Part shown: positions 51,999 through 56,880 of the stretch, piece by piece
Layout of the letters: each line of letters starts with the position of its first letter
How positions within the stretch are numbered: position 1 is the first letter of the stretch
NCBI GenBank assembly: GCA_965215195.1
Contig: CBDCDC010000002.1
Coordinates: 3,488,001-3,552,000, forward strand
Length of the DNA: 64,000 nucleotides
Origin: Candidatus Latescibacterota bacterium
Lineage (GTDB): Bacteria > Latescibacterota > UBA2968 > UBA8231
Direction of reading: 5' to 3'
Made by a program: the position numbers and the translations under genes
The notes under the pieces: generated by a model
Database searches by the model: none
What the model was told of the DNA's origin: nothing
Seen by the model: only the letters and a program-made list of their open reading frames with translations

Positions 51999-52943
51999 TT
52001 AGCAAGCCGACTTTGAATGGGCAGCCGCCTTTAGATAACCCCGAGTGCGGCTGGACCAGAACAAATAACTAAAAACCAGATCCGGGACATAGGTTTTCAC
52101 AAGCCAGCGGGCCAACCAGCGGATTGGGTAGTGAATCGGCGACAACAGGGCTAGCTGGAGCGCGAGTCGCCGAGGAGAAAATCCACAGGCCCTGATAAAG
52201 TCCAGCCGGAGTACGGCGTCAAGCTCGGGATGCTTGTGCAAAAGGATGGGGATTGACTTGCTACCGTAAGTTTGCATCAGGCGGCAGAGTGGCTCCAATG
52301 AACGCAAGTGATAGTGGTAGGACAGGGCTTCAGGAGCATAGTAAAGCGGAATACCCGCCAAATGGAGGCGATACCCTAATTCTAGGTCTTCGCCGCCATA
52401 AGCAGTGAGGTCCTCGTCGAAAAAACCTACGCGGAGCAGGGACGACCGGCGAACTGAGGAGTTGCCGGTGACGAAGCACTTGAAAGGTATGGGCTTATCC
52501 GCGTCGACCCTGTGGGGCCCCCTCCCTTCGAGATAGCGGGTCAGGGATGTAGTGGGAATTTCACGGGCAAAGCGGATGTTGCCGATAAAAACGGCTTCCG
52601 CGTGGTTTTGATGCCGCTGGGCATGGGCGCGGAGAAAATTCGTGCCGACGGTCATGTCGCTGTCGAGAAAGACGACGAGGTCGCCGCTGGCGACCCGAAG
52701 TGCTGCGTTGCGCGCCCGAGCGCGTCCCTGATTCTGTTCGTTGCGCAGCAGCCGCAATTGTAAAGGCGCGACCGCCGCATGCAATTGCTCGGCATCCAAG
52801 TGGGGGGAGGCGTCGTCCACTACGATGATTTGAATCGCCTCGTGGGGATAATTTTGCTGCGACAGGGTCTTAAGTGCTGCTTCGAGGCGCTCAGGCTCGC
52901 CATAGGTAGGCATTACGACGCTGAGCGTCAGCGGGATATTCAT
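51999..52943 (-). CDS. Glycosyltransferase family 2
   Basis: SVVMPTY, VVDDAS, ARN, FLDSD, GFFDE, YGGEDLEL. Confidence 0.92.
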   Translation of the reverse strand: MNIPLTLSVVMPTYGEPERLEAALKTLSQQNYPHEAIQIIVVDDASPHLDAEQLHAAVAPLQLRLLRNEQNQGRARARNAALRVASGDLVVFLDSDMTVGTNFLRAHAQRHQNHAEAVFIGNIRFAREIPTTSLTRYLEGRGPHRVDADKPIPFKCFVTGNSSVRRSSLLRVGFFDEDLTAYGGEDLELGYRLHLAGIPLYYAPEALSYHYHLRSLEPLCRLMQTYGSKSIPILLHKHPELDAVLRLDFIRACGFSPRRLALQLALLSPIHYPIRWLARWLVKTYVPDLVFSYLFWSSRTRGYLKAAAHSKSAC

Positions 52944-54055
52944 GCTAAAGTTTCGTAAAGCTGGGTGAGTTGAGCGGCTTCCCGTTCCCAATTATAGTGC
53001 TGGGCTGCCTGCAAGCTCGCCTTGGCACAGGCCTCTCGCTGCTCTGCATTGTCCAAAAAAGCGGTGATCTGCTCTCGAATGGCAACTATATTGGTTGGAT
53101 CAACCGTAACTCCGGTACGCGTTTCGCGGACGATGCGCTGCATTTCAGGAAAGTTGCTGGCTAGGATTGGTAACCCGGCCATCATATATTCAAAGAGTTT
53201 GTTGGGCAGAGAGTAGTAGAAGCTCTTGCCCGTGCCTTTGATCAGACACAGCCCCAAGTCGGCCGAGCAAGTATAATTGTGAAGTTGGTGAAAGGGCACC
53301 CGGGGAATAAAATAGACCCGATCGTCTAGCCCGGCAGCGCAGACTTGGTTCCGCAGGGCCTGTTCGCTAGGTCCGTCCCCAATTAGAACTAGGGCGGCGG
53401 CAAGCCCAGCGGCGGCCTCAATTTGCTCGCGCAAGCCATTTTCGGTGAGGAATCCTCCTTGATAGAGCACAATAGGGCGATCATCGGGCAGGTCCAGCGT
53501 TCCGCGTATCAGGTTGCTTTGGACCTTATGGCGGAATAACGGCAAATTGTGCAGAACAACGACCTCGTCAAGGCGGTAGCGCTCCTTGAGTGATTGGGCG
53601 ATAGACCCGCTGACGGTAATGACTCGATCTACCCGTCTTATCAGCCGCCGCTCCAACAAACTCCAGCAGGACCGCATCAGCGGTCGGTTGACAAGTGAGG
53701 ATTGTTCGGTCCAAAATTCGTGTGCGTCGTAGACGATGGGCAAATCTAGTCGCTGTGCAGCTCGCACTGCTGGCCAGAGCGAGTCTAGGTCGTGGGCGTG
53801 ATAAGCATCCGGATGGGTAGCGACCAGCAGTGGATAGGCTCGTTGCCAAAACAAAGGGTAGAGGCGGCGCAGTGAGCGGCTTCGGTCTAGCGGAATCGAA
53901 TGGATTTCAAAATCGTCCCATCCCTTGAGAGGAGTTGGCTTGAACGAGGAGGCGACAATGACGACTTGGTGACCAGCACGGCGCAGCGAAGTGGCCTCTC
54001 GGTAGATGCGGTAGTCGAAATTCAGGTCGGTGAAGGCGACCATACAGATACGCAT
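52940..54055 (-). CDS. Glycosyltransferase family 4
   Basis: YHAHD, VYDAHE, LIGDGP, SLPNKLFEYMMAGLP. Confidence 0.92.
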   Translation of the reverse strand: MRICMVAFTDLNFDYRIYREATSLRRAGHQVVIVASSFKPTPLKGWDDFEIHSIPLDRSRSLRRLYPLFWQRAYPLLVATHPDAYHAHDLDSLWPAVRAAQRLDLPIVYDAHEFWTEQSSLVNRPLMRSCWSLLERRLIRRVDRVITVSGSIAQSLKERYRLDEVVVLHNLPLFRHKVQSNLIRGTLDLPDDRPIVLYQGGFLTENGLREQIEAAAGLAAALVLIGDGPSEQALRNQVCAAGLDDRVYFIPRVPFHQLHNYTCSADLGLCLIKGTGKSFYYSLPNKLFEYMMAGLPILASNFPEMQRIVRETRTGVTVDPTNIVAIREQITAFLDNAEQREACAKASLQAAQHYNWEREAAQLTQLYETLA

Positions 54056-54084
54056 GGCGTATAAAGGAATCGGTATAAAGATAA

Positions 54085-54283
54085 ATAAAAAGCAGCCCAT
54101 TTTTAGATGGGCTGCTTTTCAAAGAGTGTGGCGGCCAGACGGTGTGATCTTGAAACGCAAGTGAGATCCTCAAACGAGGCGGTGTGGGGAGGTAATTTTG
54201 AAGATCTCAACGACCCGAAAAGGGAAATCCGAGCTTCGCGAATCAGGATTTTGGCCACGCTAGCGGACCGCCACACTATTTGA
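54085..54283 (-). ncRNA. Structured ncRNA of ~165-200 nt, possibly a divergent 6S RNA
   Basis: Has its own sigma70 promoter and terminator. Long closing stem (54265-85 with 54117-36) and 13-bp hairpin (54197-209 with 54162-74); G-U wobbles are satisfied only on the minus strand. Confidence 0.6.
54088..54119 (-). terminator. Rho-independent terminator (potentially bidirectional)
   Basis: AAAAGCAGCCCAT-loop-ATGGGCTGCTTTT with A/T tracts on both sides. Confidence 0.85.
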
Positions 54284-54288
54284 AACCT

Positions 54289-54317
54289 AAAATACACACG
54301 CTAGATTGTGTTGTCAA
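54289..54317 (-). promoter_or_regulatory. sigma70 promoter of the ncRNA with palindromic operator 54294-54311
   Basis: TTGACA-17 nt-TATTTT; the spacer is covered by ACACACGCTAGATTGTGT. Confidence 0.65.
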
Positions 54318-54354: not shown

Positions 54355-54383
54355 TTGCACACTTACCAGTGTGTGCATATCTT
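54355..54383 (+). promoter_or_regulatory. sigma70 promoter of the XRE gene with palindromic operator 54357-54374
   Basis: TTGCAC-17 nt-TATCTT; overlapped by GCACACTTACCAGTGTGT. Confidence 0.6.
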
Positions 54384-54421: not shown

Positions 54422-54955
54422 ATGCAGTTTGCGGAAATGATCAAGGAAGCCCGGTCACGAGCCCATCTGAGCCAGCAGGGATTGGCCGCGCAAGTCGTGA
54501 CGGCACGAAAGCCCAATGGCGTATGGGCAACCTATATAGGACAAATTGAGAAGGGGGAGAAGGTTCCTTCCGACGAAGTATGTATCAAGTTGGCCGAGGT
54601 TTTGGAACTCGACTATAACAGAGTGTTGATTGCTGCTTATGAGGCCAAGGCGGGCTCGGAGGAGGGACGTGCGCTCTATGGCAAGATGATGCGCTCGTTG
54701 TCGGACCCAGTGGTCAATAAGCTCCTGTCTAGCGAAGAGCCTTTGGATCCAGCCCTCTTAGGGGTGCTCTCCAACCCAGAAATCGCGGCTCTGCTCGGGG
54801 ATCAACCGTGGTTAGAGGCAGTTGCCCGGGCGCGCAAGAAACAGAAGGAACGCGATGTGTTGAGGCTGCTCGCTCTAGTAGAGGCGATGGACGACAAACA
54901 GTGGGATATGGTAATGGGCATAATAGGGACTTGGAACTTAGAACCGCCTAATTGA
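54422..54955 (+). CDS. XRE-family HTH transcriptional regulator with uncharacterised helical C-terminus
   Basis: FAEMIKEARSRAHLSQQGLA...YIGQIEKGEKVPSDEVCIKLAEVL; GAGGGA RBS. Confidence 0.85.
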   Translation: MQFAEMIKEARSRAHLSQQGLAAQVVTARKPNGVWATYIGQIEKGEKVPSDEVCIKLAEVLELDYNRVLIAAYEAKAGSEEGRALYGKMMRSLSDPVVNKLLSSEEPLDPALLGVLSNPEIAALLGDQPWLEAVARARKKQKERDVLRLLALVEAMDDKQWDMVMGIIGTWNLEPPN

Positions 54956-55565: not shown

Positions 55566-56261
55566 TCAGGGCTTGGCTTTATTAACGAGCAATTCGATGG
55601 CATCGCGCAGCCGGGCGGCGTCTTCGTATTCTTCGCAAATAACGGCCTGCTGTAGCTGGTCCTGAAGCAGGCTGAGTTCGTCTTTCTCTTTTTTGAGAGG
55701 CTGCCGGGCTTCGGCCTTTTCGGCGTTCCGCTTAGGTGGACGGATGTTGGCCGTCTCAGATTCTACACTGAGAGATTTAGAAATCTGCGTTTCAAACTCG
55801 TAGAAGCGGTTCAGTGTGTGTTCAACGTCCAAGTCGGTCTCCAAAGGCTCCAAGCCCACCTCGTCAAGCAACGTATGAGAAACGTAGATAGGCGAATCAG
55901 TGCGCAAGGCCAAAGCAATTGCGTCGCTGGGACGTGCGTCAATGTCTTTTATTGTGTGATTCTTCTCAATGACGACTCTCGCGTAGTAAATTGAGCGATG
56001 CACGTTGTGAATGACAACTTGGCGCACATTTATCGCAAGGTAGTTGACCATAGAAGAGAGCAAGTCGTAGGAAATCGGGCGTATAGGTCCATCGTTTTCT
56101 AGCCGCATCCGAATGGCGGCCGCTTCAAATTCGCCGATGGGAATGGGCAAGAGCCGCGGCAGTTCACCTTCCTTCTCGCCTAACCATACCAAGGGCCTGT
56201 CCTCGCGCAAATAGGGACTAACCTTGACCACGGACATCTCGACTAAAGAGGTATTACTCAT
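55566..56261 (-). CDS. Bifunctional nuclease (DUF151/BFN) with UVR domain
   Basis: LPIPIGEFEAAAI, RPISYDL, DARPSDAIALALR, EEYEDAARLRD. Confidence 0.9.
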   Translation of the reverse strand: MSNTSLVEMSVVKVSPYLREDRPLVWLGEKEGELPRLLPIPIGEFEAAAIRMRLENDGPIRPISYDLLSSMVNYLAINVRQVVIHNVHRSIYYARVVIEKNHTIKDIDARPSDAIALALRTDSPIYVSHTLLDEVGLEPLETDLDVEHTLNRFYEFETQISKSLSVESETANIRPPKRNAEKAEARQPLKKEKDELSLLQDQLQQAVICEEYEDAARLRDAIELLVNKAKP

Positions 56262-56880
56262 TAATCATCTCCCTGTTGAGACGGCTAATCTCGTCGCGAA
56301 GCCGCGCCGCCTCCTCGTAAACTTCTTCGGCAACGGCTTGGCGCATGCGTCTTTTGAGTTGTTCTAGCTGATTGACGGCTGGTGCGGCGATGATAGGCTG
56401 CTCTTCTCGCGGTGCGGTCACGGGTTTGGTGATGGCCTCAACGTCAGCTTTAACCCATTCATCGTCGTCGGAGCGAACGCAGCCTACCTCTTTGAGGATC
56501 TCGACAGCGGCGTAGATCGGCGCACGAAAGCGCAAGGCTAGGGCAATGGCATCGCTGGGACGTGCGTCGAGCGTATGAGTCCTGCCCTCGTCGTCGACGA
56601 GATGAATCTCGGCGTAGTACGTTCTTTCGCGTAAGTTAAAGTCGGTGATTTCGACCCGGACTACCCGGGCATCGACGTCGTCGAGAATCCGATGGGCTAG
56701 GTCATAACTGATGGGTCGTGCGGGTTGCCGCTTGCTGTGGGCCATAGAAATGGCTGCCGCCTCGAAGCGGCCGATGACAATGTGCAGATAATAGTTGCCT
56801 TCGACTTCTTTGAGCACTACTTCAGGGTATAAAGATTGAGATTTGCTGCTTAAGACCCCCTTGACTTCCATCAGAATCAT
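56254..56880 (-). CDS. Bifunctional nuclease (DUF151/BFN) with UVR domain
   Basis: IVIGRFEAAAI, RPISYDL, DARPSDAIALALR, EEVYEEAARLRDEI. Confidence 0.9.
   Translation of the reverse strand: MILMEVKGVLSSKSQSLYPEVVLKEVEGNYYLHIVIGRFEAAAISMAHSKRQPARPISYDLAHRILDDVDARVVRVEITDFNLRERTYYAEIHLVDDEGRTHTLDARPSDAIALALRFRAPIYAAVEILKEVGCVRSDDDEWVKADVEAITKPVTAPREEQPIIAAPAVNQLEQLKRRMRQAVAEEVYEEAARLRDEISRLNREMINE

Follow-up and report, generated by a model that had tools for sequence, protein, structure and literature searches.

A structured RNA with 6S-like features and a complementary ~50-nt partner unit in a family of Latescibacterota

The locus and its conservation in the family

The window, by which we mean the whole 64,000-nt stretch of Candidatus Latescibacterota DNA analysed here, carries on its minus strand, at ~54281-54078, the gene of a structured RNA that we call the large RNA. 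The promoter and the strong terminator described in the initial annotation are both present: a sigma-70-type motif, TTGACA-17-TATTTT (54289..54317, minus strand), with a predicted start near 54281, and an intrinsic terminator (54078..54121, minus strand; stem 54121-54086). Between them lies the core (54124..54278, minus strand), which is closed by the stem P1 (54278-54266 with 54136-54124). All further parts of the core are likewise on the minus strand. Its 5' strand carries 6S-like closing-stem motifs, GUCCG..AG and CCUGAUUC (54240..54268), and its 3' strand carries UUCAAG and UGGC (54133..54156). Fold and covariation place a hairpin with a C-rich loop, hairpin A (54213..54234), at a three-way junction, next to a 13-bp apical stem, PB (54162..54209), which bears the 22-nt loop B (54196-54175). 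Within loop B, a predicted partner-docking site (54175..54191) is complementary to the seed carried by a unit of ~50 nt whose locus lies outside the window.

The promoter spacer is occupied by an operator-like palindrome, ACACA-N7-TGTGT (54294..54311), and a second copy (54357..54376) lies between the promoter and a divergent XRE/HTH_3 regulator gene (54422..54955, plus strand), whose product is predicted as the likely binder of these palindromes. Among homologous loci the spacer palindrome occurs in 29 of the 32 with a divergent HTH gene versus 2 of the 20 without one, an association in which kin are not independent and which rests largely on one clade. Additional copies of an operator-like palindrome (CACAC-N6-GTGTG) occur in the long leaders of L027-L032, and also in L072 upstream of its HTH gene. 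The HTH homologues of L070, L071, L072 and L074 have no adjoining large RNA. Downstream, a GT4 glycosyltransferase gene (52940..54055, minus strand) is a neighbour by synteny and probably stands outside the mechanism of the large RNA.

The transcription signals recur throughout the homologues. A motif of the form TTGAC-N17/19-TAnnnT, with varying spacers, was found within 200 nt upstream in all 57 homologues whose upstream sequence reaches at least 150 nt (in the other 4 of the 61 it was too short), and a downstream hairpin in 56 of 57 by a lenient test that had no control. An IHF-like motif was seen upstream in only 8 of the 57. Because the 5' leader from promoter to P1 varies from ~0 to 118 nt, the stable species would be the core between the closing-stem ends. 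The core itself measures 151-176 nt across homologues; in two of them, L025 and L026, the 3' closing strand contains an 11-nt tandem duplication.

BLAST found the large-RNA stretch in 33 of 61 genomes. With covariance models, whose genome searches score just a share of the candidates, model R1 detected the RNA once per genome in 57 of the 76 genomes from the Latescibacterota family f1 and in none of 56 genomes of three other families of the class, and model R2 found the RNA in 47 of 64 f1 genomes, with one chance-level match (E 0.99) among 86 other genomes of the phylum. A search of metagenomes with the closing-stem pattern returned 69 stretches, of which 34 scored at least 100 bits and the others at most 31; these 35 are non-homologous and were used as controls. 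The same pattern found nothing in viral contigs.

The gene order is largely conserved: a pair of BFN-domain genes and a hypothetical gene come first, then an HTH gene or other ORF, and after it the large RNA, GT4 and GT2. The BFN-domain (DUF151) tandem, with UVR tails, lies at 55566-56880 in the window and is kept beside the locus across the family. In L034, L110, L113-L116 and L121 an ORF of ~150-165 aa, by eye a HEAT-repeat lipoprotein, precedes the large RNA; an ORF of this kind is absent from the window and from the genomes that lost the large RNA. Such losses include three g26 genomes (94-96% complete), in which the RNA is missing from its site and the hypothetical gene abuts GT4; in genus g20 it was not found. 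In g26 and g20 genomes in which the large RNA was not found (L334, L336-L338, and L324-L325) there are conserved promoters with short GC-rich leaders that have no terminator nearby and look like mRNA leaders.

This neighbourhood bears on an attenuator or riboswitch leader for the GT4-GT2 genes, which the initial annotation had offered as an alternative. The GT4 start lies 58-158 nt past the core in 26 of the 29 loci checked, and one RNA contig (X4 record 29) spans the terminator, as such a leader would have it. However, there is no competing antiterminator, a pair of the terminator has a probability of 0.99998 in the ensemble, and the link to GT4 is not fixed: the large RNA is kept when insertions shift GT4 1.6-2.4 kb away (L075, L107), and GT4 is kept where the large RNA has been lost (L135-L137). 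We regard this explanation as very improbable.

Fold, transcripts and resemblance to 6S RNA

The claim of ~165 nt of structured sequence was borne out, with 54115-54285 (minus strand) folding at -62.7 kcal/mol (z = -6.0) and none of 200 shuffles reaching equal stability. The 13-bp apical stem and its 22-nt loop with ACCUCC are also present as originally described; the second hairpin (54234-54213), the spacer palindrome and the partner RNA are additions to that account. From its ends inwards, the fold proceeds from P1 through an irregular helix and a short helix, P3, to the three-way junction with hairpin A and PB. We analysed covariation in an alignment of 35 diverse sequences (mean column identity 62%). 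Both sides change in 31 of its 48 pairs, more than in any of 500 shuffles, with relatedness inflating such two-sided counts, and sliding the pairing partners drops pairing to 37-48%. Hairpin A is paired in 88% of alignment cells, with changes on both sides in 4 of 7 pairs, and PB in 92.5%, with changes on both sides in 10 of 12. P1 is paired in 97.6% of cells; its sequence does not vary (G5-G9 invariant) and shows little covariation. The pairing of the 5' and 3' ends noted earlier stands, whereas relatives do not keep its outer UCAAA/UUUGA extension and have GAG/CUC there instead. Likewise, AUCCUGA does pair with UCAAGAU in the window sequence, with one C.A mismatch, but these columns are only 45% paired family-wide, a low value that is due in part to misalignment.

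The argument for the minus strand from G-U pairs extends to the whole family, in which we counted 210 G-U versus 36 A.C cells (42 pairs x 35 sequences). Single-sequence folding energies did not discriminate between the two strands (34 of 61 homologues). The best-conserved unpaired parts of the large RNA are its two C-rich loops: CUCC or UCCC occurs in loop B of 59 of the 61 homologues, and CCCC or CCCU in the hairpin A loop of 58.

Assembled transcripts cover the locus. Fifteen RNA-type runs (14 recorded as RNA, one guessed) share a small part of the region's words, and four were examined. In three of these four the summed contig depth is elevated over the core relative to the flanking genes (X1, 126,000 versus 5-72; X10, 3,700 versus 0-3; X4, 540 versus 0-52), and in the metatranscriptome X3 it is flat over the large RNA; since the runs were picked for containing the region, their strains are relatives and depth is summed over strains, these values are a poor measure of expression. 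In X4 and X10 the depth is of about the same order as that of the lineage's tmRNA contigs. The large RNA is therefore apparently very abundant, bearing in mind that strand, ends and true level cannot be read from contigs. One deep contig joins both arms at the inner end of P1, a weak hint of a reverse-transcriptase jump over a formed helix. Conservation, covariation and transcript contigs together make a stand-alone structured non-coding RNA a well-supported conclusion.

SRP RNA, RNase P RNA and tmRNA were rejected as its identity because each is encoded elsewhere in the genome. The initial annotation had likened segments of the sequence to conserved 6S regions, and this holds for the present genus: in 11 of 61 homologues, all from one genus, 16-20 of the 21 conserved closing-stem positions of RF00013 are matched (E. 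coli 6S, 21), while the other 50 are at background, with the motif windows having been chosen after viewing the alignment. At the same positions, 70 natural controls gave a mean of 12.8 (sd 1.2, maximum 15), and the phylum's own 6S-like hits match only 13-15. In a GT4 tree (quick and unrooted; 51 rows, with 2 loci left out), the 11 well-matching sequences all fall into a single nested clade.

The Rfam scan that had been proposed as a check yielded no 6S match, and RF00013 never scored the large RNA. In the window only three tRNAs reached gathering level, with sub-threshold noise at the locus, and at eight homologue loci nothing came near threshold; 173 nt of L029, among the best-matching homologues, gave no RF00013 match even at E<=10. 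Nor did a canonical 6S appear elsewhere, RF00013 having no match above cut-off in the same genome, in 61 relatives or in 151 genomes of the phylum. Among these 151, families f9 and f12 alone gave sub-threshold full-length hits. These are conventional-looking 6S candidates of 22-43 bits with promoter motifs (L123:1501-1680, L124:1501-1676 and L125-L128); the f9 copies have a terminator convergent on a tRNA and lie near a primase-like gene. In the class families f2-f4, no 6S was detected by RF00013, R2 or R3 in the genomes searched. Model R2 scored neither the phylum's 6S-like hits nor E. coli 6S, and model R3, built from six of those hits, found nothing in family f1, a null result that is uninformative because R3 does not recover E. 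coli 6S either (a partial match of 9.7 bits). A search with nhmmer, using the phylum's 6S-like sequences and E. coli 6S, returned no match in the genome, and local alignment to E. coli 6S beat shuffles in just 5 of 35 sequences at the 5' end and 6 of 35 at the 3' end. When 1,110 intergenic regions were scanned de novo for end-paired stretches followed by a terminator, 169 candidates emerged; just two have a promoter motif, and of these only the large RNA is well folded.

6S RNA is described as a rod whose central bubble is open and mostly single-stranded and mimics an open promoter (PMC4227106, PMC9130861), and the open bubble is its defining feature (also PMC8414754). The junction of the large RNA lies 35-54 nt from the 5' end, as against 41 in E. 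coli 6S. In place of the open bubble the region is filled by the covarying hairpin A and helix P3; few bases face hairpin A across the junction, and forcing the bubble open costs ~16 kcal/mol. The apical arm, long and with internal loops in 6S RNA, is 48 nt here, far less than in E. coli 6S, and consists of a 13-bp stem and the 22-nt loop. A C[CU]G-Y-R motif at the junction in 28 of 61 homologues is at most suggestive of pRNA templating. We have not filed the large RNA as 6S because RF00013 does not score it, 50 of 61 homologues are at background and a hairpin replaces the bubble. It may work like 6S RNA; that covariance models can miss divergent 6S candidates has a precedent in part of PMC8414754. 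Our searches of the open-access literature, supplements aside, returned no description of this RNA and nothing linking 6S RNA with Latescibacter or Gemmatimonad; nor did open-access searches link Latescibacter to ncRNA covariance models.

A partner unit complementary to loop B

ACCUCC, which occurs in loop B, is also found at the 3' end of the genome's 16S rRNA, and an sRNA that targets ribosome-binding sites had been among the initial alternatives. Our scan of start regions gives no standout target. Against 4,051 crudely called start regions of one genome, the mean duplex energy of loop B equals that of shuffled loops, and its best duplex reaches -31.9 kcal/mol versus -26.1 to -30.7 for 15 shuffles that were scored on one third of the regions; short seeds would escape scans of this kind. 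That best duplex lies near 2658200 of G000:C2 (minus strand), ahead of a gene whose product looks, by eye, like a methionine-synthase domain. Loop-B 12-mer complements number 11 in the genome versus 11.0 expected, loop A pairs with the HTH start region no better than shuffles (1/33), and the extended-SD RNA of this genome pairs with loop B no better than ordinary hits.

Besides its own locus, loop B has a single exact complement of at least 13 nt in the genome. This site, the seed, has itself no other exact complement of at least 13 nt in the genome. A lone 14-mer match is not unusual by chance, judging from reversed-pattern controls, but this one is intergenic, 13 nt behind a promoter-like sequence and directly followed by a terminator, and makes up a promoter-seed-terminator unit of ~50 nt at G000:C2 ~4311067-4311014 (L209:3068-3015; minus strand), 769 kb away. 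The promoter in this genome, TTGTTG-17-TATATT, was read by eye and is below the scan threshold; in most other genera it is TTGACA-17-TAnnnT. The unit folds as a seed hairpin followed by the terminator and has no Rfam match. BLAST found it in all 30 genus genomes, in most of which promoter, seed and terminator were viewed, as they also were in g22, g24, g3, g16, g17, g7, g4, g19 and g5. Seed-like hits in g20 (L347, L348, L358) and in G119 (L331) were rejected, being without promoter or terminator. G097 has the partner twice (L278, L245), in copies whose seed match is longer and whose terminator differs and is imperfect. The spacing of the CACAC-N6-GTGTG palindrome recurs in the seed hairpin in g1 and g22, which may be coincidence.

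Pairing between loop B and the seed extends over 14-18 nt in 20 of 20 genome pairs from 9 genera, chosen for diversity among the genomes in which the partner was found. In the present genome there are 14 perfect pairs and then a mismatch. Genus g3 shows a two-sided compensatory change from G-C to A-U, three genomes have a one-sided change to G-U that keeps pairing, and two g16 genomes have one mismatch in common. Seed-pattern searches lean to complementary hits; the g3 pattern permitted either letter and returned only the matching one. Loop B retains 13-15 of 15 reference bases in 23 homologues with a partner in the genome (all 15 in 20 of them) and 7-14 of 15 in 12 homologues for which two pattern searches found none. 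Most of these 12 are also without the HTH gene and group together in the GT4 tree, in a branch that includes genomes that lost the large RNA. The duplex is predicted at -32.4 kcal/mol, with opening costs of 0.4 for loop B and 18.4 for the seed, leaving a net ~-14 kcal/mol before loop strain. Cofolding gave near-zero gains, which we set aside because cofolding cannot model pairing within a loop. The large RNA and its tiny partner very probably pair, judging from conservation alone, and a trans-encoded partner explains the conservation of loop B better than RBS targeting does. A trans-encoded RNA that pairs with 6S was not found described in the open-access literature, supplements aside.

Several arrangements could produce such a pair. 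The large RNA might be a chaperone-independent sRNA that blocks many ribosome-binding sites with its C-rich loops, in the style of 6C, RsaE or RoxS, with the tiny G-rich RNA as a sponge in the style of RosA. The prominence of the C-rich loops among the unpaired parts and the ACCUCC shared with the 16S 3' end are in keeping with this, as is the outcome of searches for Hfq and CsrA, which were not found in 5 of 5 genomes; 6C RNA acts likewise without chaperones, according to part of PMC6486639, and RosA sponges RoxS, according to part of PMC8216469. However, the mRNA scans that gave no standout target and the failure of loop A to pair preferentially with the HTH start speak against it, and it leaves the 6S signature and the long closing stem unexplained; we consider it rather unlikely.

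We hold it unlikely, too, that the roles are reversed, such that the tiny G-rich RNA would be the active sRNA and the large RNA a stable sponge or reservoir that sets a threshold. The tiny unit, with its promoter, seed and terminator, does resemble a minimal sRNA, and the large RNA is apparently in great excess and presents a loop that is nearly free to pair. But the seed lacks any further exact complement of this length to act on, and in genera in which no partner was found the large RNA is still there, promoter and fold included, and so must have another role. It is more doubtful still that the two RNAs together make up a permanent two-part scaffold for some unknown protein that has nothing to do with polymerase. 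An invariant closing stem with little covariation suggests sequence-specific protein recognition, and the partner duplex is long and nearly perfect; yet the HTH regulator is the only co-occurring candidate protein, and the 12 homologues persist without a partner found.

Possible function and comparison with known systems

We favour the reading, to which we give a probability of roughly 40%, that the large RNA is a 6S-derived RNA-polymerase decoy switched by a tiny antisense RNA, because the large RNA is apparently in excess, has 6S-like features and survives without a detectable partner. The 6S-type closing stem and junction would bind the sigma-70 holoenzyme, for which P3 and hairpin A would have to open. 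Transcripts of the tiny unit would first kiss loop B with their hairpin loop, which reads GAGGCG in this genus, and then zip into a 14-17-bp duplex, straining the apical stem; this could free the polymerase or expose the large RNA to RNase III. Antisense release may act instead of, or besides, self-templated pRNA synthesis, and the divergent XRE protein may act as a repressor of the large RNA at the promoter-spacer palindrome. Tentatively, the decoy could have traded the open bubble and the long apical arm for a docking loop that a ~50-nt antisense RNA clears. The result would be a switch on global transcription made up of two RNAs, with a repressor of its own; one branch of the family would later have simplified or lost the switch.

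Should the large RNA bind polymerase, this would be a release route for 6S-sequestered polymerase that we did not find described in our searches, and the range of shapes of polymerase-binding RNAs would widen. If it does not, the two RNAs are still an undescribed sRNA-sponge pair in genomes without detected Hfq. One family gains a concrete syntenic 6S candidate with transcript support, in a phylum that had none over the Rfam cut-off (151 genomes), and a conserved, co-varying RNA-RNA pair has been discovered from sequence alone.

Among known systems, the large RNA is like 6S RNA (SsrS, RF00013) in its size class, single copy, own promoter and terminator, ~40-nt end-closing stem and apparent abundance and, in this genus, in the conserved Rfam consensus positions GUUCG..AG, CuGAgCC/GGuUCaA (with a C.A mismatch) and CGGC. 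Unlike 6S, it has no RF00013 score, a 5'-side hairpin at a three-way junction replaces the open bubble, and the apical arm is short, with a 22-nt loop and a candidate dedicated antisense partner. Like Ms1 and CoRP, it is lineage-restricted and occurs in genomes without detectable 6S; in contrast to them it is ~160 nt rather than ~300 and 516, has no Rfam match and adopts another fold. PMC11077062 reports one abundant type of polymerase-bound RNA per species and expects further classes that homology searches have missed. Two neighbouring hairpins with C-rich loops, in genomes in which Hfq was not found, recall 6C and RsaE-RoxS, but here the loops sit on a long closing stem, with no mRNA target signal and no Rfam match.

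In the RosA-RoxS pair, G-rich tracts of RosA bind C-rich tracts of RoxS. The two are separately encoded sRNAs of Bacillus subtilis that base-pair, as described in part of PMC8216469, and the RNAs studied here resemble them in the conserved complementarity of two separately encoded RNA genes (20/20 pairs), known here from sequence. They differ in that the G-rich partner is only ~50 nt long and has a single 14-18-nt seed, and in that its target has 6S-like features.
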